The position numbers and the translations under genes are program-made. Below, piece after piece: positions 500-29,411 of a stretch of DNA of 32,000 bases. Positions within the stretch are counted from its first letter, which is position 1. Each line of letters begins with the position of its first letter. The stretch is from Candidatus Saccharimonadota bacterium (GTDB taxonomy: Bacteria; Patescibacteriota; Patescibacteriia; 2-12-FULL-60-25), in contig CP060222.1 of NCBI GenBank assembly GCA_023898425.1, forward strand, positions 60,001 through 92,000. The letters are read 5' to 3'. The notes beneath the pieces were generated by a model. The model did no database searches, had not been told where the DNA came from, and worked only from the letters and a program-made list of their open reading frames with translations.

Positions 500-1507
500 A
501 TGTCGACTGTCTCAAAACATCTACGCCCTTTTCTGGAGCATTTAGAAATAGAAAAGGGGCGCTCATTATTAACGGTACGTAATTACGAATTCTATCTTCG
601 TCGTTTTATCGAATGGGCAAATGATCCTGATACCGAGGATATTACCGCGTCGATGATTCATAATTATCGTCTCTATCTTAATAGACTTGAAACAGGTGAT
701 GCGCAAAAGACCTTAAAAAAGTCTACACAAAATTATCATCTTATTGCCTTGCGTTCGTATCTTAAGTTTTTAGCAAAGCGTGATATCGCGTCGCTCTCTC
801 CAGAAAAGATTGAGCTCGCAAAACAGGGGAGTCGTGATGTTGCTTTTTTAGAAAGCTCAGATCTACAACGATTATTAGAAGCACCAGAAAAAACAGATAA
901 TGGACCTTTGGTAAAAGCACGTGATAAAGCAATTCTTGAGCTATTCTTTTCTACGGGGATGCGTGTTTCAGAACTCGCTTCGCTCAAAATTACTTCTATT
1001 AATCTAGAGCGTGATGAATTTACGGTACGTGGTAAGGGTGACAAAACACGCGTTGCTTTTTTGTCGCATCAAGCACGAGCTGCGTTAAAGTATTATCTTG
1101 GTTTACGTAAGGATACGGCGCCCTATCTTTTTGTACGACATGATCGCGCGAAAAGTGGTGTAAAAGATATCGGTGCACTAACGCCACGTTCGATAGAGCG
1201 CTTGGTACATTACTATGCGGCCGCAGCAGGTATTCCAAAAAAGGTTTCTCCTCATACATTGAGACATTCTTTTGCAACGGATCTTTTGATTAATGGCGCT
1301 GATTTGCGTAGCGTTCAGGCGATGCTCGGTCATTCGTCTATCACAACAACACAAATTTATACGCATGTAACAAATCAACAATTGCGAGAAGTGCACAAAG
1401 CTTTTCATGGTAAAACGATTGATGAAAAGAATAGCTATGACTTCAACAATCCCTACAGGATGTTTAGAGACAGACTTGCTAATAAAGCAATATCCGCAAG
1501 AACGTGA
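500..1507 (+). CDS. xerC: Tyrosine site-specific recombinase, XerC/XerD family
   Basis: 335-aa ORF. It has an N-terminal core-binding region (LEHLEIEKGRSLLTVRNYEFYLRRF) and catalytic motifs ARDKAILELFFSTGMRVSEL, HTLRHSFATDLL and LGHSSITTTQIYTHV. The last ~28 aa extend beyond the usual family end and overlap the next ORF. Confidence 0.9.
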   Translation: MSTVSKHLRPFLEHLEIEKGRSLLTVRNYEFYLRRFIEWANDPDTEDITASMIHNYRLYLNRLETGDAQKTLKKSTQNYHLIALRSYLKFLAKRDIASLSPEKIELAKQGSRDVAFLESSDLQRLLEAPEKTDNGPLVKARDKAILELFFSTGMRVSELASLKITSINLERDEFTVRGKGDKTRVAFLSHQARAALKYYLGLRKDTAPYLFVRHDRAKSGVKDIGALTPRSIERLVHYYAAAAGIPKKVSPHTLRHSFATDLLINGADLRSVQAMLGHSSITTTQIYTHVTNQQLREVHKAFHGKTIDEKNSYDFNNPYRMFRDRLANKAISART

Positions 1508-2341: not shown

Positions 2342-2418
2342 GTCCTTGTAGCTCAGCTGGATAGAGCAACAGCCTTCTAAGCTGTAGGTCGCTGGTTCGA
2401 ATCCAGCCGGGGACACCA
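2342..2418 (+). tRNA. tRNA-Arg (anticodon TCT)
   Basis: Hand-folded cloverleaf. Acceptor GTCCTTG/CGGGGAC, D arm GCTC..GAGC, anticodon stem ACAGC/GCTGT with loop CTTCTAA, T arm GCTGG TTCGAAT CCAGC, discriminator A and an encoded CCA. Confidence 0.95.
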
Positions 2419-3339: not shown

Positions 3340-3534
3340 CTACCGAGAGTTTCCGGTAGCGATGAGAATCAGTCGACGATCGCGATGTCGAGTGACGTTA
3401 TTTAGAGTGTTAAGCCAGAAGTAAAATTCCTCTAGACTCATACCCTTGGCAGTGAGCGCTTCTTCGAGACGGGGGTGATGTCCTTGAGCGAGCGCCAGTT
3501 GGATGATTTGGTTGATTTCTGTTTTTGTTATCAC
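3340..3534 (-). CDS. Small hypothetical protein (64 aa, GTG start)
   Basis: The ORF ends 6 nt before the hairpin at 3310-3333. The sequence looks helical (EINQIIQLALAQGHHPRLEEALTAKGMSLEEFYFWL). I recognised no family. Confidence 0.35.
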   Translation of the reverse strand: MITKTEINQIIQLALAQGHHPRLEEALTAKGMSLEEFYFWLNTLNNVTRHRDRRLILIATGNSR

Positions 3535-3733
3535 GTACGATAGGTTTCACTTTCTGCCTCTATACCATGACGGTTAAAAATAACGAGTCGGTTAGTAAGC
3601 AGCTAAAAGATACCTCTCTAAAGGCGTATTATTTTTGTCAAAACAGAGCTTGTCTATATCTTAGAGGATTATCCTCTTGATTTTCTTTTTAAAAGGGCTA
3701 TTCTGCCACCACCACAGCAAAAACAGTCGCCAT

Positions 3734-4021: not shown

Positions 4022-4291
4022 TTAGGTAAACTTGGGCGAACTTTTACCCTGATCTTTGTTATGGATGATATGGGGAGACAATTGATGACAAAAAAGAGGT
4101 CTAAGACGACTAAAGGCTATGCGCGAGGATAGGTACTTAAAGAATATCATCACAAAATTATCGTTAAAGGGCGGCCAGGCGAACAATCTGTTGAGCCAAA
4201 TGTATTTAGTAGCGACGTCAGATTTGTTGAGCTCGATTAAACTCCATTGAATAGGCTTGATGATGTTTTTATTTAGATTCTCATTGATCAC
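4022..4291 (-). CDS. Hypothetical ORF of doubtful reality (89 aa)
   Basis: This is the longest ORF in the 3850-4300 gap. It is rich in W, C, H and F, has no motif I recognise, and is followed in frame by a stop and a second ORF (3809..4021). The + strand reads more protein-like in pieces (3873..4016, 3965..4132, 4133..4240). I leave the region unresolved. Confidence 0.2.
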   Translation of the reverse strand: MINENLNKNIIKPIQWSLIELNKSDVATKYIWLNRLFAWPPFNDNFVMIFFKYLSSRIAFSRLRPLFCHQLSPHIIHNKDQGKSSPKFT

Positions 4292-4318
4292 TTAGGTGCT
4301 TTGATATAGTCTTTATCT

Positions 4319-4771
4319 ATGACTGAAGAAATTTTGGATTTAGTGGATGAAAATGATCAGATTATCGGCCAGCTTTCACGAGATGAAGTCTACAAACAAG
4401 GTCTACATAACTATCGGGTTGTTCATGGTTTTGTGGTCAATAAAGAAGGAAAAATCTGGATTCCAAAACGCACGCTCACAAAGAAGATTTATCCAGGCGC
4501 ATTAGATTATAGTGTGGCTGGACATGTCGAGGCAGGCGAAACCTACGAAGAGTCATTCATTCGTGAAACAGCCGAAGAACTTAATATAGATCTTAAACAA
4601 ACTCTATGGAAACCACTTGGAAAAATGACGCCAAAAGAAGGTGCTCATTGTTTTCAGATGGTGTATGAAATCCAACTAGAGACAGCGCCTGTGTACAATA
4701 CTTCAGATTATACTGAGGCTTTTTGGATGTCGCTTCAAGAAATCATTGATCGTATTGAAGGGGAGAGCTAG
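4319..4771 (+). CDS. NUDIX hydrolase (IDI-like subfamily by overall pattern)
   Basis: 150 aa with an intact Nudix box, GHVEAGETYEESFIRETAEELNI (G-x5-E-x7-REUxEExGU). Confidence 0.9.
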   Translation: MTEEILDLVDENDQIIGQLSRDEVYKQGLHNYRVVHGFVVNKEGKIWIPKRTLTKKIYPGALDYSVAGHVEAGETYEESFIRETAEELNIDLKQTLWKPLGKMTPKEGAHCFQMVYEIQLETAPVYNTSDYTEAFWMSLQEIIDRIEGES

Positions 4772-4835
4772 CCAAGACGGATATCGTGACTACCGTTAAA
4801 AGATTCTATTTTTAAATCCAGCGTTATCAGTATCT

Positions 4836-5300
4836 ATGAACAATTGCTTCGTTTGTGGGCGTATTGAGCAAATAAAGGATGGGACGAATCCATTTTTGTC
4901 ACTGAACTTAATACGGGTTATGTAGTGCTTGGTGACTTTCAATTCTTTAATGGCTATACAGTTTTTTATCTAAAAATCATTGTACTGAATTACATCAGCT
5001 CTCGTCTACTGAACGAGCGCTTTTTTACAGGAGATGTCTTTGGTTGCGGAGGCGGTTTTTAATGCTTTTAAGCCCGTAAAAATGAATTACGAACTATTGG
5101 GCAATTCGGATAGTCATTTGCACTGGCATCTCTTTCCGCGACACGCGGATGATCCTTTGCCACGTGGACCTGTTTGGTTGATCGATAAAGAATTACGCAA
5201 CGGAGATTCCGCTCGCCCAACGAAGGAAGAGCTCATTGTATTAAGAGATAAGCTGCAGCACGAACTTAGCCGTTTAGAAATTTTATTTAAGTCACTTTGA
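4836..5300 (+). pseudogene. HIT-family (histidine triad) hydrolase, broken as sequenced by three 1-nt frameshifts in T-runs
   Basis: Track ORF 5034..5300 carries the HIT motif HLHWHLFPR. The ATG at 4836 gives MNNCFVCGRIEQIKDGTNPF. Adding one T at each of 4893-4897, 4962-4967 and 5021-5026 yields a continuous 155-aa HIT protein (...FVTELNTGYVVLGDFQFFNGYTVFLSKNHCTELHQLSSTERALFLQEMSLVAEAV...). Confidence 0.85.
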
Positions 5301-5312
5301 TAGAGAAAAGCT

Positions 5313-5828
5313 ATGCAATGGCACACTCATGCAGCGATAGGCGCGAACGCTATCTGGTTAACGGCATTGTTTGGAGATGCTTCTCAGGCACCGATTGTTT
5401 ATTTAACTATTGGTGCTTTTGGCGGGTTATTGCCGGACATTGATGCGGGTGGTGGCAAGAGTTACGGTGCTAAGATTCACTATATCGGTGGTGGTATTTT
5501 TAAGCCTTTTCAAAACGTGTTTCGTCATAGGGGATTCTTTCATTCGTTCATGTGTATTGTTTTAGTTTTCTGCTTGTCGACTCCGCTTGCTTGGTTTATT
5601 GATCCGTTTGTACCAATGGTATTAACGGCTGGGTATGCAAGCCATATCGTTATTGATAATTGGAATTGTGGTTTAGAGTTTTTCTATCCATTGAAAAAGC
5701 GCGTAACCTTTGTTCCGAAATGGATGCAATTTCGCGTTGGTTCAATCGGGGATAATCTTCTCTTTCTTCTTGGTGTTTTTGGTTTAGTGGCGTATATATT
5801 GACGCACTTGTTATATATTGCGACATAA
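5313..5828 (+). CDS. YdjM-like membrane-bound metal-dependent hydrolase (DUF457 type)
   Basis: 171 aa, multi-TM. Motifs are THAAIG at the N-terminus, LLPDIDAGG, HRGFFHSF and ASHIVIDNWN. Confidence 0.75.
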   Translation: MQWHTHAAIGANAIWLTALFGDASQAPIVYLTIGAFGGLLPDIDAGGGKSYGAKIHYIGGGIFKPFQNVFRHRGFFHSFMCIVLVFCLSTPLAWFIDPFVPMVLTAGYASHIVIDNWNCGLEFFYPLKKRVTFVPKWMQFRVGSIGDNLLFLLGVFGLVAYILTHLLYIAT

Positions 5829-5829
5829 A

Positions 5830-5853
5830 GCATCCCGCTAATGAGCGGGATGC
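5830..5853. terminator. Bidirectional terminator between convergent genes
   Basis: GCATCCCGCT (5830-5839) pairs with AGCGGGATGC (5844-5853), loop AATG. A-runs and T-runs flank it on both sides. It sits between the stops at 5828 (+) and 5860 (-). Confidence 0.65.
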
Positions 5854-5859
5854 TTTATG

Positions 5860-6354
5860 TCATTGTTTTTGGTCTTTTGTACGAATAACGATCCAAGAGA
5901 CAAGCAATACAGTTTGCATCCATAACATCAATATATTTAGTCCGTTTGTACTCGGGCTTGTCCAACCAGCAGCAAAATAAAAATTAAGATTCATAAAGAC
6001 TCCTCCAGTGAGTGCTGATATAGCAATACATCGCGCAATATTTTTGTTGATGGACTTCTTGCTAAACCAGTATAGCGTGAGAGCGAAGAGGAGTCCGAGG
6101 CCGGTTAGAATTTCACCCCATTGTACGAGATTGGCAAAGAGTGCCGGGTACTCTTTTGCGCTTTTTAAGACAGAATCGATATACCAATTATGCGGATTAC
6201 CGTTTTCAAATCGGACGAATGATGAATGAATACTCCCAACAAATGTGCCGCCGTAGATTTTGCCCCACCCAGAATGAAGCCATTGATAAGCCAGAATAAG
6301 CTGCATGCTAATAGAGACAAAAGCAGGATGGGTTAATATACGAGGTAATTTCAT
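5860..6354 (-). CDS. DoxX-like integral membrane protein
   Basis: 164 aa with four predicted TM helices. The N-terminal motif LILAYQWLHSGWGKI is typical of the DoxX/DoxD-like family. It is the last gene of the nrd-containing minus-strand string. Confidence 0.5.
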   Translation of the reverse strand: MKLPRILTHPAFVSISMQLILAYQWLHSGWGKIYGGTFVGSIHSSFVRFENGNPHNWYIDSVLKSAKEYPALFANLVQWGEILTGLGLLFALTLYWFSKKSINKNIARCIAISALTGGVFMNLNFYFAAGWTSPSTNGLNILMLWMQTVLLVSWIVIRTKDQKQ

Positions 6355-6372
6355 ATGATGGTGTAAATATTG

Positions 6373-7074
6373 TTAAGTTCGAACTTCTAAATGTAGCTGA
6401 GGTTGTTTTGCGCGGATATTGCGAGCTACGGCATCAAGGTCTATGCGTTCCAATCTAGGAAGGCTTGGGTCTAGTGTTGTGTTATAACGTATCTCTTGTA
6501 AAGCATAGTACTCACCGTCTTTTAGCTGAGCAGCAATTTCTTCTAAGTCTGCTTGAGTATGCAATCCAGAATAGACGGTTGTACGAAATTCATGAGGTAT
6601 AGAGGAATTCTGAATAAGGTGAAAGGTCTCTTGGCAGTTATCGATAACCTTTTTTTGATTGATGCCGATCACTTCACCATAGCGCGCCCATGTATGCTTG
6701 AGATCCATCGCGAAAAAATCGACTAATCGTTCGTTGATCAACTGCTCAATCATACGAGGACTAAGTCCATTAGTATCGAGCTTTACTAGCAATCCTAATG
6801 ATTTGAGCTTCTTGATGAACTCAACAAGATCGGCTTGTACGGTTGGTTCTCCGCCAGTAATACAGACACCCTCCACAATGTGCTTGCGTCGATTGAGGTG
6901 CTCGAGTATATCTTGCTCATTAAATGTTTTGCTAATGTCTTTTGGTTGGGTAGGAATTAGCTCGGGATTGTGACAATAGACGCAACGAAATGGGCATCCT
7001 TGCGTAAAGATGATTGAGCTGATGATACCAGGATAATCAAGGAGACTGAGGGGTTGAAAACCTGAAATCAACAT
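6373..7074 (-). CDS. nrdG: Anaerobic ribonucleoside-triphosphate reductase activating protein (radical SAM)
   Basis: 233 aa with the radical SAM motif GCPFRCVYCHN (CxxxCxxC) and GGEPT. It overlaps the nrdD stop by 7 nt. Confidence 0.9.
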   Translation of the reverse strand: MLISGFQPLSLLDYPGIISSIIFTQGCPFRCVYCHNPELIPTQPKDISKTFNEQDILEHLNRRKHIVEGVCITGGEPTVQADLVEFIKKLKSLGLLVKLDTNGLSPRMIEQLINERLVDFFAMDLKHTWARYGEVIGINQKKVIDNCQETFHLIQNSSIPHEFRTTVYSGLHTQADLEEIAAQLKDGEYYALQEIRYNTTLDPSLPRLERIDLDAVARNIRAKQPQLHLEVRT

Positions 7075-8915
7075 ACTCTTTTACACGCGAGGTCCGGTTG
7101 AGGCTGTGGTGTGTTTTGCTTCTCGATAATGTACTCAGACCGTTCTTTGTATTCACTTTTCTTTCCTTTGTTCCATTGATCAACGGGGCGAAAGTATCCC
7201 ACAACACGCGACCAAACTTCACAGGTAGATGAGCAGCTTGGGCAGGTTTGTACTTCGCCGGTTAAATAGCCATGTTTTGGACAGATACTAAAGGTGGGCG
7301 TGATCGTAAAGTAGGGGAGGTGGTACGACTCAGCTACCTTTTTTACAAGGTTTGCACACGTTTTCCAGTCTGCGACGCGCTCACCTAAAAAGAGGTGGAG
7401 AACTGTGCCGCCGGTGTATTTTGTTTGTAAGTCATCTTGGTGCTCGAGTGCAGAGAGTGGGTCGTCTGTGTAGCCAACGGGGAGATGTGAAGAATTGGTA
7501 TAATACGGCGCATCCGGTGTGCCGGCTTGAATGATATCTGGATAGCGAGCTAAGTCTTCTTTTGCAAATCGGTAGGTGACGCCTTCCGCGGGGGTGGCTT
7601 CAAGGTTATAGAGGATACCTGTTTCATCTTGGTAGGTTACGAGACGGTCTCGCATAAAATCAAGAACCTCATGAGCGAATTGCTTGCCTGCTTCAGAGCC
7701 TAAATTTTCACCCAATAGATTGAGACAGGCTTCATTCATGCCATTAAGTCCAATGGTTGAAAAATGATTACGCAAAGAGGGTAGGTAGCGTTTGGTATAA
7801 GGAAGTAGACCGCGATCAATGCTGTTTTGTACGACCTTTCGTTTGATTTCTAGGGAGTCTTTCGCAATATCCATAAGCTCGCCAAGTTTTTCAAAAAAGG
7901 ATTGTTTTGTTGTTGTGAGGTAGGCGATACGCGGTAGGTTTATGGTTGCAACGCCAACGCTTCCGGTCATTTCTGCTGAGCCAAAGAGACCACCGCCGCG
8001 TGCGCGTAAGACGCGTAAATCGAGTTGCAACCGGCAACACATACTTCGCACATCACTTGGCTTAAGAGATGAGTTCACAAAATTTTGAAAGTACGGAATG
8101 CCATACTTTGACGTCATCTCAAACAATAATTTTGCGTTTTCACTATCCCAAATAAAATCTTTGGTAATGTTGTACGTTGGAATCGGAAAGGTAAAGACAC
8201 GTCCGTTTTGATCTCCCTTTGTCATAACCTCGATAAAGGCTTTATTGATGAGATCCATTTGTTCTTGGCAGTCAGCATAGGTAAAGGCCTGTTCTTTACC
8301 GTCGATAACTGGATGTGTTTCTCTAAGATCTTCGGGTACGACCCAATCAAGAGTGATATTGGTAAAAGGTGTTTGCATCCCCCAACGCGAAGGTACGTTT
8401 AAATTAAAGATGAACTGCTGAATATTTTGATAGATTTGCGCATAGGTGAGCTCGTCATTTCTTACATAGGGTGCAAGCATCGTATCAAACGAAGAAAAAG
8501 CTTGTGCGCCTGCCCATTCGTTTTGGAGCGTTCCAAGAAAATTTACCATTTGCCCTAACGCTGTTTCAAAGTGCTTTGGAGGCGAGGATTCGACTTTTCC
8601 GGCGACTCCGTTAAAGCCTTCGGTGAGGAGTTGACGCAAACTCCAGCCAGCACAATAGCCAGAAAACATCCCAAGATCATGAAGATGTAGATCGCCTTCG
8701 GTATGAGCATTACGTACGGCTTCTGGATAAATAGTATTGAGCCAATAATTAGCTGTGATTTTTCCAGATGTATTTAAGATCATGCCACCAAGCGAATAGC
8801 CTTGGTTTGCATTTTCGTTAACCCGCCAATCTGATTGATTGAGATATTCGGTAATCGTTTTTTCGACGTCGATCATTGCTCCGGCTGATTTGATGTCTGT
8901 GTTACGTGTGGTCAT
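7068..8915 (-). CDS. nrdD: Anaerobic (class III) ribonucleoside-triphosphate reductase
   Basis: The C-terminal zinc site CPKHGYL...CPSCSS.C and glycyl-radical motif SRVVGYFRP are present, as is the conserved core (GGMILN, CCRL, GSVGVATINLPR). I place the start at the ATG at 8915 (MTTRNTDIK...). The track's GTG at 8948 would translate the upstream hairpin and T-run. Confidence 0.95.
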   Translation of the reverse strand: MTTRNTDIKSAGAMIDVEKTITEYLNQSDWRVNENANQGYSLGGMILNTSGKITANYWLNTIYPEAVRNAHTEGDLHLHDLGMFSGYCAGWSLRQLLTEGFNGVAGKVESSPPKHFETALGQMVNFLGTLQNEWAGAQAFSSFDTMLAPYVRNDELTYAQIYQNIQQFIFNLNVPSRWGMQTPFTNITLDWVVPEDLRETHPVIDGKEQAFTYADCQEQMDLINKAFIEVMTKGDQNGRVFTFPIPTYNITKDFIWDSENAKLLFEMTSKYGIPYFQNFVNSSLKPSDVRSMCCRLQLDLRVLRARGGGLFGSAEMTGSVGVATINLPRIAYLTTTKQSFFEKLGELMDIAKDSLEIKRKVVQNSIDRGLLPYTKRYLPSLRNHFSTIGLNGMNEACLNLLGENLGSEAGKQFAHEVLDFMRDRLVTYQDETGILYNLEATPAEGVTYRFAKEDLARYPDIIQAGTPDAPYYTNSSHLPVGYTDDPLSALEHQDDLQTKYTGGTVLHLFLGERVADWKTCANLVKKVAESYHLPYFTITPTFSICPKHGYLTGEVQTCPSCSSTCEVWSRVVGYFRPVDQWNKGKKSEYKERSEYIIEKQNTPQPQPDLACKRVC

Positions 8916-8935
8916 AGAATGGATTTGAGAAAAAT

Positions 8936-8958
8936 AAAAAAAACTCACTGGCAGTGAG
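8936..8958 (-). terminator. Hairpin plus U8 tract 20 nt upstream of the nrdD start (terminator of the leader ORF, or an attenuator)
   Basis: The minus strand reads CTCACTG C CAGTGAG (8958-8944) followed by TTTTTTTT (8943-8936). Confidence 0.5.
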
Positions 8959-11194: not shown

Positions 11195-12898
11195 TTATTT
11201 TTTGAGAGTTTTCACCATGTAGCTTTCGCGTTCTTCGTAACCGAGCATTTTATAGTATTCGCGAACGCCAATACCAGAGATGACAGAGATATGTTCGTAC
11301 CCTTCGTCTTTCGAAATCTCTTCGGCTTTTTGCATAAGTAAGCGTCCGTAGCCACGGTGTTGGGAGGCGTCTTTATTGTCTTGTGTAAGATTTAACGCGG
11401 TGCCATAGGTATGAAGTTCGCGAACAAAGGCAGTATGTTCGATGATGGGGAAAGCGCTAACAAGCTCATGGGCTTCTTTTGCGAGTCGTTTATCTTCAGA
11501 ATAATCAGGATGAGACAAAAGTGTTTTTAGTGTAGGAGGTAAGCGGAGACGTAAAAAAGCAAAAACAGCCCGTCTTTCGGTGTCTTCGACGGTTAAAAAG
11601 ATTTCTGTACCAGCAGCTGAGTCAAAGCGTTGTTCAAAAACTTGGGTTGTAACATTGCTTGGATCAATTCCTGCTACATGTCCAACCTCTCGACAACGCA
11701 AGCATTCACAAGAAAGTCCACGTGCTTTCATCTCATCTTCTATAACAGTGCGTAGATTGGTGACTTTATTACCGTAAGAAATATCGTTTTCTGGAAAATC
11801 ACGAATAAGACGCGAGACACGGCAATAGCGCGGAATCAGCGTCTGCATGGTGATAAGTGTTTCTTTGAGCTCGTCACCTTCGAGTGGAGTAAAGCGACCA
11901 TCTTTTGCCCATTCGTGGAGCTCAGCCAGAGGCAAAACGACACATGGATAAAGCTTAATCATATCAGGACAATATCTTTGATCGTTAAACAATGTCCGCA
12001 TGTCTTCGATGTCTTTTGCGGGCGTTGATCCAGGTTGTCCAGGTAAGACATGAAAGTCCGTTTTAAAACCCATCATGCGTAATAATGCATTTGCACGAAT
12101 AGTGGCATCAATATGATGACCGCGATTGGTGATATCCAAAACGTCATTCTGGAGTGTTTGTACGCCAAGCTCAACACGGGTACAACCTAGTTCGCGTAAA
12201 CGAATAAGATCTTTTGCTGTAACCCAATCAGGACGAGTTTCAATGGTTAAACCAATGATGCGATATTCGGCTGTCTCATTTGCTTTTTGCGAAGCAGCAA
12301 GTGATCCGTAACGCGTTTTCTTTACTTGACCTAGGTGGTTTGCTGCATCGAAACAACGTTTAATAAACCATTTGCGATAATCCCAACGATACGAAGACCA
12401 TGTGCCTCCTTTGATAATAAGCTCAATCTTTTTTGCTTCGTGGCCATTGTGTTCGAGTGTCGTAACGCGTTGCCATACTTGTTGGTAGGGATCGAACTTT
12501 AGCGATAGCGCGCGTGCTGCTGCAGGCTCACTTGAGATATAGCTTTTTGGCATGCGTGTTTCTGTAGGACAGTAAACACATTTACCTGGGCATGGGTAAG
12601 GCTTTGTGAGAACGGTGATTGGTGCGACACCTGAGTCCGTGCGAATATCTTTTACACGCAAACTTTTTTCGAAGGATTCAGAAGCTTGAATACGCTCTTC
12701 TTTTACGAGCTTGTGATACATTGTCCAGTAATGGTAGAGGGTAGGAAATTGTACGCCAGTACCTTTGAGGAGTTTGCGCGCGGTGGTCGCTAAAAGAGCA
12801 CGGGTCGGGGAATCGTGCGCCAGAGTTTCGATAATCACCTGCTCAAAAAGCTCGTTTTGCGCTTTTTGACTCAGTTTTACTGGACGAGATGTATTCAT
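11195..12898 (-). CDS. elp3: Elp3-family radical SAM / GNAT acetyltransferase (bacterial Elongator protein 3 homolog)
   Basis: The radical SAM cluster motif PYPCPGKCVYCP is present with TIETRPDW and ELGCTRVELGVQT. The C-terminal GNAT motif is QHRGYGRLLMQKAEEISKDEGYEHISVISGIGVREYY. I place the start at the ATG at 12898 (MNTSRPVKL...); the track start at 12949 is less likely. Confidence 0.9.
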   Translation of the reverse strand: MNTSRPVKLSQKAQNELFEQVIIETLAHDSPTRALLATTARKLLKGTGVQFPTLYHYWTMYHKLVKEERIQASESFEKSLRVKDIRTDSGVAPITVLTKPYPCPGKCVYCPTETRMPKSYISSEPAAARALSLKFDPYQQVWQRVTTLEHNGHEAKKIELIIKGGTWSSYRWDYRKWFIKRCFDAANHLGQVKKTRYGSLAASQKANETAEYRIIGLTIETRPDWVTAKDLIRLRELGCTRVELGVQTLQNDVLDITNRGHHIDATIRANALLRMMGFKTDFHVLPGQPGSTPAKDIEDMRTLFNDQRYCPDMIKLYPCVVLPLAELHEWAKDGRFTPLEGDELKETLITMQTLIPRYCRVSRLIRDFPENDISYGNKVTNLRTVIEDEMKARGLSCECLRCREVGHVAGIDPSNVTTQVFEQRFDSAAGTEIFLTVEDTERRAVFAFLRLRLPPTLKTLLSHPDYSEDKRLAKEAHELVSAFPIIEHTAFVRELHTYGTALNLTQDNKDASQHRGYGRLLMQKAEEISKDEGYEHISVISGIGVREYYKMLGYEERESYMVKTLKK

Positions 12899-12917
12899 GT
12901 GATAGTCTGGCCGTAGA

Positions 12918-13649
12918 ATGGCAAACATCGAACAATCCCGCAAGCGCATGCAAGAAGTTTCAACGTTTTACGAAGACTTTGGAGCGCATTTTGCGCGCAC
13001 GCGTTTTGCCTTGTGGCCGTGGATGAAGGAGGTAGCTTATCACGCAAAACCTGGTATGACGGTCATTGATGTCGGCGCTGGTAATGGTCGCTTTTCAGAA
13101 GCCTTTGTTGATGGCGTGCAATATATCGGTATCGAACCATCAAGCGCATTACGTGAAGCAGCGACCGCGAAATTACGCCAAGGATCGGTGATAAAAGAGG
13201 GGAGTTTGCCTCATCTGTCTATTCAATATGCACAAGCGGATATTACGGTTTGTATAGCTGTTTTGCATCATTTGCCAAAAACACAGCACGAAGCTGTATT
13301 TGCAGAGCTTTTTCGTATTACAAAACCAGGGGGTTCTATCTATATTAGCGTTTGGAATGCACGAGGTAAGGGGTTTTTGCGTTATCCTCGAGCTTGGATT
13401 GCGGCATGGCTACGAATACCGTTATGGAAGGGGTTATCTTCGGGCGAGTGTTATGTTCCTTGGAAGTCAGATCAGCAAATAACACAGAGATATGTCTATG
13501 CATGGACCAAGCGTGAACTAAAACGTTTAGGTGCTCGCTACGGAAAAGTGCTCCAATGTGAGTATATAAATGATTCAACAACAACGGTACTAGAGGGTAA
13601 GAATATCCTCCTTTGTGTAAAAAAGCCTGAAAAAGAGCATATTCTTTGA
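12918..13649 (+). CDS. Class I SAM-dependent methyltransferase, Trm9/ALKBH8-MTase-like
   Basis: Several blocks align by eye with yeast Trm9. YEDFGAHFARTRFALWPWMKEV....VIDVGAGNGRF matches YNEIAPHFSQTRYKPWPIV..IDVGCGNGKY. IAVLHHLP matches IAVVHHWS. KPGGSIYISVWN matches RQGGQALIYCWA. YVPW matches FVPW. The start is the ATG at 12918 or 12948. Confidence 0.8.
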   Translation: MANIEQSRKRMQEVSTFYEDFGAHFARTRFALWPWMKEVAYHAKPGMTVIDVGAGNGRFSEAFVDGVQYIGIEPSSALREAATAKLRQGSVIKEGSLPHLSIQYAQADITVCIAVLHHLPKTQHEAVFAELFRITKPGGSIYISVWNARGKGFLRYPRAWIAAWLRIPLWKGLSSGECYVPWKSDQQITQRYVYAWTKRELKRLGARYGKVLQCEYINDSTTTVLEGKNILLCVKKPEKEHIL

Positions 13650-18403: not shown

Positions 18404-23794
<5,391 letters not shown>

Positions 23795-23927: not shown

Positions 23928-24014
23928 GCCCGGGTGGCGAAATGGTATACGCAAGGGACTTAAAATCCCTGGTCTGAAAATGGCGTGCGGGTTCGAGTCC
24001 CGCCCTGGGCACCA
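23928..24014 (+). tRNA. tRNA-Leu (anticodon TAA), class II with a long variable arm
   Basis: Acceptor GCCCGGG/CCTGGGC, anticodon stem AGGGA/TCCCT with loop CTTAAAA, a 16-nt variable arm, T arm GCGGG TTCGAGT CCCGC, discriminator A and an encoded CCA. Confidence 0.95.
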
Positions 24015-24045: not shown

Positions 24046-26372
24046 TGTATTCAAGAGAGTATGTTCCAAATATGGTATGCTGTGCCTAATTATCTATGTT
24101 TTTTATGAAATACAAGAAGCACCTTTTCGCCATGGCAATTGGATTGGTTGGTTTAGCTATCGCAGGTACCTTTTTTACGCGAAAATCTGCTGAGTCAGCC
24201 GTAACCTATAATATCAGCGTTGGTTCATTTCCGCAGTACACGGCTAAAATTGGGCAGAACGTTTATACGGCAAATCGGTTTGGATCAAGCGTTTCAGTTA
24301 TTGATGCAACGACTAGAACGGCGGGTTCAAATATTTCTGTAGGCACAACTCCTGTACAGCCTATTGAGGTTGGAACAGATCTCTATGTCACGAATTCAGG
24401 TGCGGGCACAGTCTCTGTTATTAATTCCTTAACAAATACCGTTTCAAATACGATCACGATTGGTGCGACGTGGCAGCCATGGGGTGGTATTCTTGTTGGG
24501 ACAGATTTGTACATAGGAAACAATGCTTCTAGCTCGGTTTCTATCATTGATACTGTTACAAAAACGGTATCTGGGCATATCAGCGTTCCTGCAAGTGGCA
24601 GTATAAGATCGTTTGGCTTGGTCGGAACGAAGCTCTATGTAACGAATTACAATAGTAATAGTGTTACGGTTATTGATACGATAACAAAAACAGTGATTAC
24701 AACGATTCCTGTAGGAACAAGACCTTTTACGATCGTTGTGGCTGGAACCTCTGTCTATGTTGCTAACCAAAATAGCGCCAATGTTAGCGTTATCGATTCG
24801 ACGCTAGACGTGTTGGATACTACGATCCCTGTTGCTTCAGGGGCATATGAGCTTGCTTTAGTCGGAACAGACCTCTATGTGTCAACCTTTGGTAGTACGA
24901 ATATCGCCGTTATAGACACTCTCACAAATACGGTTGCCGACACGATACCTGTTGCAGGCAATGTTCTTAAAATAATTATCGTTGGCACAAATGCGTACGC
25001 TTTGCTTTATACAATGGATTCGGTTGCTGTGATTGATACATTAACAAAAACCGTTACGACAACAGTTGCTGTTGGCGATTTACCTTATGATGCCGAGTTT
25101 GTTGGTGATTTGCTATTTATTTCAAATGCGAATTCGAATAATGTGAGTGTGCTCGACATGAATACGAATACCCTTGTCGAAGTTGGTAAGCCATTGAGAG
25201 TAAGTGCCTCTATTAGCAATACAGAGCTAACCATTGTTTTTGATGAGCCTCTTGATCCTGCTTCAGTTCCAGATCCTAGTCAGTTTACCGTACGCTATAC
25301 GGGTATTATTGGGCCCGCGATACCTGTTAATTCAGTTTCCGTTATCGGTTCAAACGTTGTTTTGGAAATGGCGAGCGCACCTAGTGTTTTGAGCGATGTT
25401 CGTGTTGGGTATACACATCCTGTAACAAATCCCCTTCAGGACTTATCGCAGAACACGGTTACAACCTTTACGAACTATACGGCCAGCGTTATAAGCTGTG
25501 CTGCTGTCGCTGTCGGTTATAGTCCACGGTTCTCTCTTGCTGTTGGTGGTGATTTATATGTATTGAACGATGGTTCAGGTAGTGTTTCTGTTGTTGATAT
25601 TGGCACAAGTGCTGTCATAGATACGATCGCCGTTGGTTCTCAGCCAAGGTATGCTGTTTTGGCGGGGACGAGTCTCTATATCATCCATAAGGATTCTGAC
25701 GAGGTCATGGTTATCGATACATTAACGAATCTCGTTACCGATACTATTACTATCGACTATGGCTCATCCTTTGGCGTTCTAGTAGGTTCTGATCTTTATG
25801 TGATAACCGGAGAATCGAGCAGCGTTTCAGTTATTGATACGCTCACGAATACCGTTACTGATACGATCGCGGTTGGAGATAGCTCGCGTCGTGCTGCCTT
25901 AGTTGGGACTCAGCTTTATATCACCAATCAAGATACGAATGATGTCTCGGTTATTGATACGCTGACGAATACCGTTACGGATACGATTGCTGTCGACGAT
26001 GGTCCTCATGATATTCATGTCGTTGGCACCGATCTTTTTGTTGTTAATGAGTACCTTGATTCAGTGTCGGTCATTGATACGCTCACCAACACTGTTACTG
26101 ACACGATCGTTGTCGGAGACAGTCCAACTCGCTCTATATTAGTTGGCACCGATCTCTATATTTACATCGGTGATACCTCGGAGATGGCAATTATCAATAC
26201 TGGAACAAAAACCGTGACCAAAACGTTTGCTATAGGATCAGCGCCAGCGTCGCTTACTCTCGTTGGGAGCACGCTCTACACAGCTCAATCTCCTGACGTT
26301 ATCCGTCTCATTGATACCGTTGCTCAAGATATTCTTTCTTGTGCTCCTACCTATACCCTCACCTACTCCGCC

Positions 26373-29300
26373 GGCCCCAACGGCTCCATCACCGGCACAG
26401 CTCTTCAAATCGTCGCCGACGGAGCCGATGGCACCGCTGTCACGGCTGTCCCAAACTCCGGATACAAGTTCGCTAATTGGTCAGATGCCTCAACCGCAAA
26501 TCCAAGAACGGACATAGCCGTTACAAGCAATATCACCGTCACAGCTAACTTCACCAAGATCCCAAGTCTCGGTGGTGCTGGTGCAGACCCAGGTTGTGTT
26601 GGTGTCGGTTGTGGCACAACAACACTCTCTTCAACATCAACAACACCTGCCCCTGTTCTTGTTGGTCCTGATATCACCAATATTCGTGTTACTGAACTCT
26701 CCACATCCACTGCCAGAGTCTCTTGGGATACAAGTGTACCCGCTACAACCGCCTTCTACTTTGGCCTCAGTGATCTATACGGAAGCGGTTTCCGAGGGGA
26801 TGCAACTCTTGTCACTTCTCACTCGGTATTACTCAATACGCTGACAGAAGGAGAAACGTATCACTTCCGTATCCAAGCAGCAGACAGTATGGGCAAGACA
26901 AGAGCTCTCGAAGATGACACCTTCAAGACCCTTACGTATGCAGATTTAGCCAAAGACCCTAAAATCTACGAAGTACAGGTCTCGTATCTCACCGATACAA
27001 CTGCCGTTGTATCTTGGAAGACAAATGTCCCGCTACAAAGTCTCGTGACATATGGTGAGACCAGTGACTATGGCATGACAGCAGAGAGCACCACCCTTAC
27101 GATGTCGCATCTCGTGAACCTAAGTGGTCTCACACCAAGTACGCTATATCACATGAAGCTCACTTCTAGTGATGCCGACGTCACAACTTCTACAGAAGAC
27201 ATCACCTTCTTTACTCAAGTAGACAGCGCCCCTCCAGCAAACCCACTTAACTTCAGTGCCAAGAGCGGTCTCGAACAAAATACCTTGTCTTGGGTGAATC
27301 CAACGAATGACCATTTTGCTCAAGTACGCATTTTAGCAAGAACAGACAGATATCCTCAAAACCCAATTGATGGTGCTTTTGTGTATCAAGGGGATGGGCA
27401 GCAAGTTGTTCATACGGGTCTTGTATCAGGCAAAACATATTTCTATACGAACTTTGCCTACAATACCCAAAACAATTATTCATCCGGGGCTCTCGCCCAA
27501 GCCGTACCAACAGGTGTATTACCAGAACCAGAAAAAGAACCTGTACCAGAAGTACCACCTGCTCCAGAACCAGAGGTACCACCAGCACAAGAGGTGAATA
27601 CACCATCCGGCCAAGGTGATACGACCGGCTCTTCCGAATCCTCCGGAAGCACCCCTACAGAACCTCCTTCGGTACCACCAGCTCCCGAACCTACCAATCC
27701 AGAGCAACCCTCAGGTATCCCAATGCCTCCAGAAGTTCCAGCTGAAGAGCCATCTATCATTTCTTTGAGTACAGCTCCTGTGCGTACCATGGCGCTTAAC
27801 CCTGAATACACCATGGGCAATGGCTCGGTGCCATTAACCGCAAATCAAAACAATCAAATCGCTATCACACCTGGACCAAAGGTATCGATGCGTATTAAAG
27901 CGGCTCAAGTTGAAGGATCACCAACCATCGCTATCTTAACCTTTGATGACAATCGTCAATTACTTGAATTGCAATCAAATGGAGACTGGACAGCGACCTT
28001 TATGCCAACACGCATTGGTCAGCAGAATGCTCAGATTGATTTTGGCTATGAAGATGGTACCGTGGCACGCGTCACCACGATCTTTGATGTACGTGTACCT
28101 GGTCGTGTCATCGAAAGAGATATCCCTCTTGTTGGAGAAGTACGTCTTGTCGAAGGTGCTCGCGTCACTCTCGAGACAAAAACAAATGGACAATGGCAGA
28201 CCTGGTCAGGGCGCTTAACCAATCAACTCAATCCACAGACAACAAAAGAGGATGGCTCATGGGGTTTCTCTGTCCCAAGTGGTACCTATCGTATCCGTGT
28301 TGAGAAAGATGGCTATGACACTATCGAACGTATCTATACCGTCACCAATACGATCTTAGGCTCAGATATCGAGCTCCAAAAACCCTTCCTGTTCAACCTG
28401 ATGCTATCGGTATTGTCGCTACCGCTGTTACCTTGGCAAATATCGCCACGGTCGCAAGTCTCTTTAACTTCCTTTGGTATCTCTTAACACAACCACTCAT
28501 GTTCATTGGTGCACGCAAGCGCAACAAGTGGGGTGTGGTCTACAACTCCATCACCAAACAAGGAACAAATCTTGCGGCTGTTCGTTTGATGGATGCACAA
28601 ACAGGACGCGTGCTTCAAACACGTATCACAGATGAAAACGGTCGTTACTTCTTTCACGTCAAACCAGGTGACTATCGCATCGAAGCCGTGAAAGCAGGAC
28701 ATGTCTTCCCAAGTCTCGTCGCCAAGGATCTCACCGAAGACAACGAATACCTCGATGTCTATCACGGCACTCCGGTACACGTTGAAAATGAGACGGATCT
28801 CACCTTAAATATCCCTCTTGATCCAAATCATCCAAAAGAACTCACGCAAAAGTTCTTCGCAAGCGCTTTACACAAAAAGCAAAAACGTCATTAGTCTTCT
28901 CTCCTTTGCGGTGACCCTCGGTGCTCTTGCTCTACGCCCAAGTATGTTGCTTCTTGGTCTTGCTGCTCTTCAATTAGCTACCTATCTCATCTTCAGAAAA
29001 CTCATTGCTGTACGCAAACCAAAGAACTGGGGATTGTGACTGAAGCAGATTCTCACAAACCTATCGGCAGCACGGTGGTTCGTATCTTCGACAAGAAATA
29101 CAACAAACTTCTTGAGACACAAGTAACCGACGCCAAAGGACGCTATGGATTCTTAGCCAACAAAAACCTCTACTTTGTGACCGCAGACAAAAAGGGCTAT
29201 GAACGCTTTATCTCCGAAGACATCGACCTTACCCATGCCGAAGCTCAAACCATTGAGCGACCTATTACCTTAAAGAAGGTGGGGGATACGCCTACGCCTA

Positions 29301-29380
29301 CGCCTACGCCTACGCCTACGCCTACGCCTACGCCTACGCCTACGCCTACGCCTACGCCTACGCCCAATCCATTTACTGAT
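26373..29380 (+). repeat. Copy 2 of the ~3 kb direct repeat
   Basis: The offset to copy 1 is 5566 nt before the diverged patch and 5605 nt after it. It then falls to 5604, 5603, 5602 and 5601 across the four homopolymer differences. These offsets agree with the duplicated antisense ORFs in the track. Confidence 0.95.
29288..29365 (+). repeat. Hexanucleotide array (ACGCCT)x12 + ACGCCC encoding (Thr-Pro)13
   Basis: I counted it directly. It has the same length and peptide as 23687-23764, but both third-codon positions differ in every unit. Confidence 0.95.
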
Positions 29381-29411
29381 TAGAACGATAGTAGAATCCC
29401 TTAGCAAAGAT

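Follow-up and report, generated by a model that had tools for sequence, protein, structure and literature searches.

A head-to-head Elp3 and Trm9-like gene pair in Patescibacteria and Chloroflexota: a candidate bacterial pathway for wobble-uridine modification

Introduction

A 32,000-nucleotide stretch of the genome of a Candidatus Saccharimonadota bacterium (GenBank assembly GCA_023898425.1, contig CP060222.1, positions 60,001 to 92,000; hereafter the window, with positions counted from its first letter) carries a gene for the radical S-adenosylmethionine (SAM) enzyme Elp3 and, divergently oriented beside it, a gene for a Trm9-like methyltransferase. Together, the two genes probably encode a two-step pathway that converts the wobble uridine of tRNA (U34) into 5-carboxymethyluridine (cm5U34) and then into 5-methoxycarbonylmethyluridine (mcm5U34). 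The same module is found in Patescibacteria and in Chloroflexota, both in Anaerolineae and in Dehalococcoidia, including Dehalococcoides mccartyi.

Textbooks and reviews assign the chemistry that leads to xcm5U34 (Elp3, Trm9) to eukaryotes and archaea, and that leading to xnm5U34 (MnmEG) to bacteria. The Elp3 of D. mccartyi has been described as “a rare example” (PMC6367351), and the literature of 2020 confined bacterial Elp3 to Dehalococcoides (PMC7663514), while a 2026 paper places Elp3 in “numerous bacteria”. For the second enzyme, a 2017 review stated that no bacterial homologues of Trm112-dependent methyltransferases were detectable (PMC5372719). Full-text literature searches, with Glatt et al. 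2016 outside their coverage, found no published bacterial Trm9 homologue or Elp3-Trm9 pair, in line with a first interpretation made from the letters of the window (the sequence-only reading), which knew of no described pair of this kind. The pairing is not new in principle, given that clustering of Elp3 and Trm9 genes in Sulfolobus solfataricus was noted in 2008, as cited in PMC6144793. Moreover, many Anaerolineae-type members of the methyltransferase family already carry the Joint Genome Institute (JGI) label “tRNA (uracil-5-)-methyltransferase TRM9”, the NCBI label being “class I SAM-dependent methyltransferase”. What is new here is a bacterial instance of a known Elp3-Trm9 system, not a new kind of system.

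The divergent gene pair in the window

The pair and its principal motifs are listed below; DmcElp3 and MinElp3 denote the Elp3 proteins of D. mccartyi and Methanocaldococcus infernus.

11195..12898, minus strand: elp3 gene, 567 aa counted from the conserved start; radical-SAM plus GNAT, predicted tRNA U34 carboxymethylating enzyme
12569..12592, minus strand: radical-SAM [4Fe-4S] motif CPGKCVYC, aligned with CPGKCIYC of DmcElp3; the radical-SAM domain spans 12020-12592
11687..11710, minus strand: linker cysteine motif CECLRCRE, aligned with CRCIRCRE of both DmcElp3 and MinElp3
11237..11365, minus strand: GNAT/KAT domain core, with the acetyl-CoA motif QHRGYGR at 11342-11362
12899..12917: 19-bp spacer between the divergent start codons, from the sequence and the conserved starts
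12918..13649, plus strand: Trm9-like methyltransferase gene, 243 aa; class I SAM, Pfam Methyltransf_11 at 56 bits

In the list of open reading frames (ORFs) of the window, the longest minus-strand ORF at this place runs from 11195 to 12949 and encodes 584 aa. It matches the NCBIfam model TIGR01211 “Elp3” at 499.1 bits against a cutoff of 350, over model positions 42-522 of 522, and Pfam recognizes Radical_SAM (aa 120-310), Radical_SAM_C, and GNAT domains in it, with Acetyltransf_1 (aa 529-571) at 22.5 bits against a cutoff of 20.7. A PDB search with the window Elp3 retrieved MinElp3 (E = 3e-114) and DmcElp3 (5l7j, E = 1e-108). Its acetyl-CoA motif was aligned with QHRGLGR in DmcElp3 and QHMGYGR in MinElp3, and zinc-binding linker cysteines of the kind listed above are a feature of bacterial and archaeal Elp3 (PMC6367351). 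With the Fe-S, linker-cysteine, and acetyl-CoA motifs intact, the ORF is, as judged from these alignments, a full-length Elp3.

The longest ORFs of the two genes have 32 bp in common. The closest relative is locus L001 from a Patescibacteria metagenome-assembled genome (MAG), with 85% identity in Elp3 and 67% in the methyltransferase; similarity to it starts at the third methionine of the Elp3 ORF (MNTSRP, ATG at 12898), and this conservation points to 12898 as the Elp3 start codon. The N-terminus of the methyltransferase, MANI(E/D)Q, is conserved from 12918. Since conservation begins at these two positions, the genes most likely start 19 bp apart on opposite strands. The sequence-only reading had described an Elp3 homologue composed of radical-SAM and GNAT domains and starting 20-50 bp from the methyltransferase on the other strand; both domains were recovered, and the spacer falls at the low edge of that range. 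A scan with the sigma-70 consensus found no sigma-70-like promoter or terminator in 12600-13200. A 19-bp spacer has no room for separate intergenic promoters, so that any promoters would lie inside the coding sequence of the partner gene, and the head-to-head layout with so short a spacer would permit joint expression of both genes.

Ahead of the region aligned to DmcElp3, the window Elp3 has ~80 N-terminal residues, with 13 Lys/Arg against 9 Asp/Glu. This stretch is missing from DmcElp3 and resembles the extension of archaeal and eukaryotic Elp3 that has been linked to tRNA binding (PMC6367351, PMC7663514); the weak activity of DmcElp3 has been put down in part to its short N-terminus (PMC7663514). 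Speculatively, the Patescibacteria Elp3 proteins with the N-terminal extension may be better tRNA binders than DmcElp3.

Between its linker and its GNAT domain, at residues ~438-468 counted from the methionine at 12898, the window Elp3 also contains ~30 additional residues (PTLKTLLSHPDYSEDKRLAKEAHELVSAFPIIEH). This segment is mostly unmatched in DmcElp3, where the alignment has a 21-residue gap, and unaligned in MinElp3.

Conservation of the head-to-head arrangement

Loci were collected from both sides of the pair. The methyltransferase-side sample comprised 80 loci (L001-L080) from a scan of one genome per prokaryotic species, in which Elp3 was sought by tblastn with the window Elp3. It was located upstream of the methyltransferase in 66 of the 80 loci, and on the opposite strand in all 66. 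The ends of the tblastn alignments were at most ~420 bp apart in 59 of the paired loci (median ~200 bp), with a gap of 1.1-2.3 kb in the other seven. Fourteen loci showed no Elp3. In five of these the upstream sequence is shorter than 900 bp, and three of the others are archaeal. According to their record titles, the paired loci belong to Uhrbacteria, Magasanikbacteria, Peregrinibacteria, and other Patescibacteria, and many to Anaerolineae and other Chloroflexota. One paired locus comes from a Thermoanaerobaculia (acidobacterial) MAG, and some paired co-assembly MAGs are titled “uncultured Gammaproteobacteria”, a title that is not trusted.

The Elp3-side sample comprised 80 metagenome-contig loci, Dehalococcoidia-like, with 63-100% identity to a DmcElp3 query whose sequence was rebuilt from the PDB alignment; here the methyltransferase was sought with a hidden Markov model (HMM) of its family. 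It was located upstream of Elp3 in 55 of the 80 loci, again on the opposite strand in every one. Among the loci without it, ten extend 1 kb or more upstream of Elp3, and fifteen were too short to judge. All motifs of the window Elp3 are shared by DmcElp3 (PDB 5L7J), which is itself divergently paired with a Trm9-like gene: in locus L081, the Elp3 is 100% identical to the crystallised protein, and a 43-bp spacer lies between the methyltransferase gene (4271-4945, minus strand) and that for Elp3 (4989-6368, plus strand). In NCBI this methyltransferase appears as the D. mccartyi “class I SAM-dependent methyltransferase” or “UbiE”, e.g., AAW40081.1 and WP_010936386.1. The DmcElp3 literature covered here makes no mention of this neighbour.

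The recurrence of the head-to-head pair in 66/80 and 55/80 independently selected loci indicates that the adjacency is not due to chance. Clustering of neighbouring ORFs in the 160 loci from both sides found no third gene comparably conserved beside the pair, which points to a two-gene head-to-head module. Furthermore, the pair persists across phyla while Elp3 diverges to ~36% and the methyltransferase to ~25% identity. This genomic association argues that Elp3 and the methyltransferase are functionally coupled. Conservation in relatives was the check proposed with the sequence-only reading, and the divergent pair is kept across the candidate phyla radiation (CPR; Patescibacteria), Anaerolineae, and Dehalococcoidia.

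Two side observations concern these samples. The ten unpaired Dehalococcoidia-like loci with sufficient upstream sequence are L087, L095, L098, L101, L104, L108, L112, L119, L130, and L137; several of them share a sample series (Ga0182010/21/27, Ga0326727/28), and they may represent a subclade in which the pair was separated or the methyltransferase lost. In L007, L010, L014, L015, and L018, the Elp3 match spans ~2.0-2.1 kb and is split into two high-scoring segment pairs. Some Patescibacteria Elp3 genes have a seeming insertion of ~120-200 aa past the position aligned to window residue 427-458; this may be an inserted domain or an element similar to an intein.

Relationship of the methyltransferase to Trm9

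Pfam and NCBIfam contain no Trm9-specific model; comparisons were therefore built on a profile of 15 Patescibacteria homologues of the methyltransferase (A1) and on an alignment of 21 methyltransferase sequences from Patescibacteria, Anaerolineae, and archaea (A2). The glycine-rich motif I of the window protein, DVGAGNG, supports a class I SAM fold. Against all PDB sequences, the best match of the A1 profile was Yarrowia Trm9 (5cm2_Z; 64.5 bits, 8e-17, profile positions 25-223), the next reaching 49 bits. Profile-profile alignment by hhalign of A1 to eleven fungal Trm9 sequences gave 99.9% probability and E = 4.8e-31 over 209 columns, running end to end in both; the nearest UbiE-like proteins outside the family also aligned with high significance, but only over a 138-column N-terminal and Rossmann core. 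The Dehalococcoidia family aligned to Trm9 with E = 2e-30. An AlphaFold2 model of the window methyltransferase has a predicted local distance difference test (pLDDT) value of 92 and a Rossmann fold, and a Foldseek search of the PDB with this model placed Trm9 5cm2_Z at the top, with a target-normalised TM-score of 0.82.

In HMM cross-scoring, the fungal Trm9 model gave 93-111 bits to archaeal members, 58-84 to Dehalococcoidia, 42-71 to CPR, 33-62 to Anaerolineae, and 7-40 to the outgroup, the last being a biased control that consists of the nearest non-family matches to the window protein. Against the CPR members, this UbiE-like outgroup scored about as high as fungal Trm9, a comparison subject to the same bias. 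Identification as UbiG, UbiE, CmoM, BioC, or ArsM was rejected on NCBIfam scores far under the cutoffs (UbiG, for instance, reached 30 bits with a cutoff of 103, and CmoM 15.7 with one of 366).

Mutagenesis of yeast Trm9 (ScTrm9) has identified H116, W145, W168, and Y243 as important and R29, R241, N271, and H115 as less so; H116 is crucial to activity, and the alanine mutant of Y243 is strongly impaired (PMC4678810). The equivalent positions in the window protein, all on the plus strand, are as follows.

13002..13004: Arg29, equivalent to ScTrm9 R29; motif FARTR..WP, aligned to Trm9 TRYKPWP; invariant in A1 and A2
13266..13271: His117-His118, equivalent to H115/H116; motif AVLHH; invariant
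13353..13355: Trp146, equivalent to W145; invariant
13461..13463: Trp182, equivalent to W168; motif VPW; invariant, and absent from the UbiE-like outgroup
13488..13496: Arg191-Tyr192-Val193, equivalent to R241-Y242-Y243; Arg kept, Tyr243 replaced by Val
13602..13604: Asn229, likely equivalent to N271; start of the last beta-strand; invariant in the CPR family

Seven of the eight functional ScTrm9 residues are kept in the window protein, the exception being Tyr243. The assignment of Asn229, which lies in the same block as Trm9 DNWW in a gappy alignment, is the least certain of all. The equivalents of R29, H115, H116, W145, W168, and R241 are invariant across the 21 A2 sequences and present in all five groups (CPR, Anaerolineae, Dehalococcoidia, archaeal, and fungal), while the six UbiE-like outgroup proteins lack the Trm9 residue set as a whole. 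By these comparisons, the window methyltransferase is assigned to a Trm9-related family, with the Trm9 active site largely intact and one notable substitution. An alignment by eye had already matched its conserved blocks with those of yeast Trm9; the best profile match, the full-length hhalign alignment, and the retained residues bear this out, and the profile searches suggested at the time as a check against other class I methyltransferases return Trm9 as the nearest family, both with the A1 profile (8e-17) and with hhalign (5e-31).

Proposed pathway and alternatives

The pair would constitute a self-contained module of the eukaryotic and archaeal type for modification of the tRNA wobble uridine. 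In the first step, the radical-SAM domain of Elp3, with acetyl-CoA bound by the GNAT domain, would place a carboxymethyl group on C5 of U34 to give cm5U34. This step is proposed because the window Elp3 is homologous to MinElp3 and DmcElp3, two enzymes with published biochemistry: the carboxymethylation chemistry is established for archaeal Elp3, and DmcElp3 shows tRNA-triggered hydrolysis of acetyl-CoA (PMC6367351). In the second step, the Trm9-like enzyme, a predicted carboxyl O-methyltransferase, would use SAM to methyl-esterify the carboxyl group and yield mcm5U34, or mcm5s2U34 if a 2-thiolase also acts. The grounds for this second step are the homology to Trm9, the retention of active-site residues, and the persistence of the gene pair; Trm9-Trm112 carries out the same esterification of cm5U34 in yeast (PMC4678810) and in Haloferax volcanii (PMC6144793).

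Several observations weigh against this pathway, and a first group of them concerns the identity of the methyltransferase. When the window protein was used alone to search the PDB, UbiG ranked first and Trm9 5cm2_Z fourth, although among these matches Trm9 alone was aligned across nearly the whole protein (residues 26-220), past the SAM core. The same search with the D. mccartyi methyltransferase ranked Trm9 eighth, behind seven generic methyltransferases, and a Dehalococcoidia-only profile resulted in a tie between Trm9 (71.8 bits) and an uncharacterised Pyrococcus methyltransferase, 1ve3 (73.3 bits). Foldseek was not discriminating, as dozens of class I methyltransferases came within a factor of ten of the top match. 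In a neighbour-joining tree (200 bootstraps) with a small and biased set of six UbiE-like outgroups, the Elp3-linked groups join fungal Trm9 with 44% support, and the deep nodes are poorly resolved. The first rank of UbiG and the poorly resolved deep nodes, together with the public labels and the significant hhalign match to UbiE-like proteins over the core, would suit a generic UbiE/UbiG-like enzyme that methylates a small molecule or a protein instead of tRNA and stands beside Elp3 through inherited synteny or shared regulation. Such an enzyme is nevertheless quite improbable here: the divergent adjacency has outlasted deep divergence of both proteins across phyla, no other neighbouring gene is conserved with them, UbiE-like proteins lack the Trm9-type residues outside the SAM core, and the NCBIfam scores for UbiG, UbiE, and CmoM are far too low.

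A second group of observations bears on the product. CPR and Anaerolineae members have V, A, or I at the position of Tyr243 (Val193 in the window protein), a substitution that could alter substrate handling, and sequence identity to Trm9 is only ~20%. Archaeal Trm9 needs Trm112 in vivo (PMC6144793), and eukaryotic Trm9 is likewise dependent on it. No Trm112-like ORF was found in the window by a six-frame motif search or by phmmer with an E. coli YcaR sequence, nor was a Trm112-like gene conserved near the pair among the 160 loci. These points, and the unidentified cm5U isomer-like species seen in H. volcanii (PMC6144793), would accord with a methyltransferase that works with Elp3 on tRNA and acts on a different atom or intermediate, generating a new xcm5U derivative in place of mcm5U. 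We regard this as unlikely, given that the other seven Trm9 residues are kept, including the His pair and the Arg proposed to position the carboxylate, and that the Dehalococcoidia members retain RYY(H/Y)LF exactly as in Trm9; RYY is also kept in the archaeal and fungal members.

A further point against the pathway is that, according to a 2020 review, there is no direct evidence of xcm5U34 in bacteria that carry Elp3 (PMC7663514). The pair might act away from tRNA altogether, with Elp3 serving as an acetyltransferase of proteins or other molecules and sharing its non-tRNA target with the methyltransferase. Early annotation took Elp3 for a histone acetyltransferase, a name that PDB entries still bear; yet every catalytic motif for the tRNA reaction is intact in the window Elp3, which makes this possibility very improbable. 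The two-step conversion of U34 into mcm5U34 is the reading that we prefer over these three.

The origin of the module is a separate matter. For each bacterial group, the cross-scoring gave higher scores with the two archaeal sequences than with the other bacterial groups, a pattern that would fit an archaeal origin of the module and its spread by gene transfer. In its widest form, the proposal would be that Patescibacteria and Chloroflexota acquired an archaeal-type Elp3 together with a Trm112-independent Trm9 and make mcm5(s2)U34 instead of, or alongside, the MnmEG products; this form is tentative, and we hold it to be rather doubtful as a whole. MnmE and MnmG are not encoded in the 32 kb of the window, and no literature was found on their status in Dehalococcoides or Patescibacteria.

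A small zinc-ribbon ORF accompanies the pair in part of the Dehalococcoidia-like sample. It encodes ~72 aa and, in 20 loci, directly follows the Trm9-like gene in the same orientation (3411-3638, minus strand, in L081; the others within L082-L153), at a distance of 11-90 bp in many of them and ~635 bp in D. mccartyi. Its motif consists of CPxC, 18 residues, and C(W/Y)KC, with a basic helical tail behind it; in length and in the spacing of its cysteines, the protein is reminiscent of the short Trm112 signature of archaea (PMC5372719). Examined as a Trm112 candidate, it showed no match to Pfam Trm112p and none to Trm112 in PDB sequence searches. The ORF is absent from the window and from L001-L080.

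Comparison with known systems

Eukaryotic Elongator and Trm9-Trm112 comprise the same two enzyme families, acting in the same order as predicted for the window pair. Fungal Trm9 and the window methyltransferase align over their full length and have R29, H115, H116, W145, W168, R241, and N271 in common. Elongator, however, has the subunits Elp1, 2, 4, 5, and 6, which the window system lacks, as do archaea. The window pair differs further from the eukaryotic system in its head-to-head arrangement, in the Val at the position of Tyr243, in its bacterial host, and in that no Trm112 was detected nearby.

The archaeal system, represented by Elp3 and Trm9-Trm112 of H. volcanii (HVO_1032), combines a stand-alone Elp3 with a short Trm9, like the window pair. 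The two sampled archaeal methyltransferases, which score best against the HMM of every bacterial subgroup, keep RYYH or RFYH where the window protein has RYV. In contrast to the bacterial pair, the three archaeal loci with upstream sequence have no adjacent Elp3.

MnmE/MnmG(/MnmC) and CmoM act at the same tRNA position as is proposed for the pair, with different chemistry and enzymes. CmoM provides a bacterial precedent for the SAM-dependent methyl esterification of a carboxyl group on the U34 side chain (cmo5U). MnmEG chemistry is the textbook bacterial route (PMC5372719).

Significance

Because an Elp3-Trm9 module is conserved in at least three bacterial lineages, mcm5U34, a nucleoside documented so far only in eukaryotes and archaea, is predicted to occur in bacterial tRNA. 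If the acquisition of a Trm112-free module proved true, a wobble modification considered exclusive to eukaryotes and archaea would be regular in whole bacterial lineages, D. mccartyi among them. An accessible test system exists: DmcElp3 has already been made and crystallised, and the candidate for the second enzyme is encoded next to it. A bacterial Trm9 that works alone would offer a naturally Trm112-independent form of an enzyme that has been investigated only in heterodimers, and a new name would be due for many database entries now listed as “class I SAM-dependent methyltransferase” or “UbiE”. The value of the finding thus lies in the breadth and strictness of the conservation, in the partner gene beside the reference bacterial Elp3, and in the direct experiments that it opens.

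Other features of the window

Two tRNA genes lie in the window.

2342-2418, plus strand: tRNA-Arg(UCU)
23928-24014: tRNA-Leu(UAA), between two giant surface-protein genes

The presence of tRNA-Arg(UCU) had been noted from the letters of the window and suggested as a link to a Trm9 substrate class; the gene is indeed there, and the link amounts to co-location within 32 kb. A tyrosine recombinase/integrase gene (500-1507, plus strand) is located ~0.8 kb upstream of it. Also encoded, both on the minus strand, are NrdD (7068-8948), an anaerobic ribonucleotide reductase, and the radical-SAM activase of this enzyme (6373-7074); together they indicate an anaerobic lifestyle.

The two giant surface-protein ORFs, at 18404-23794 (1796 aa) and 24096-28487 (1463 aa), have InlB B-repeat, fn3, SdrD_B, and PEGA domains. 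They contain the copies of a ~3 kb direct repeat with 96-100% identity (20798-23727 and 26364-29328). The tail of the second copy is split between 28433-28894 and 29036-29383, which suggests either that the duplication is recent and has undergone frameshifts or that the assembly is faulty here.

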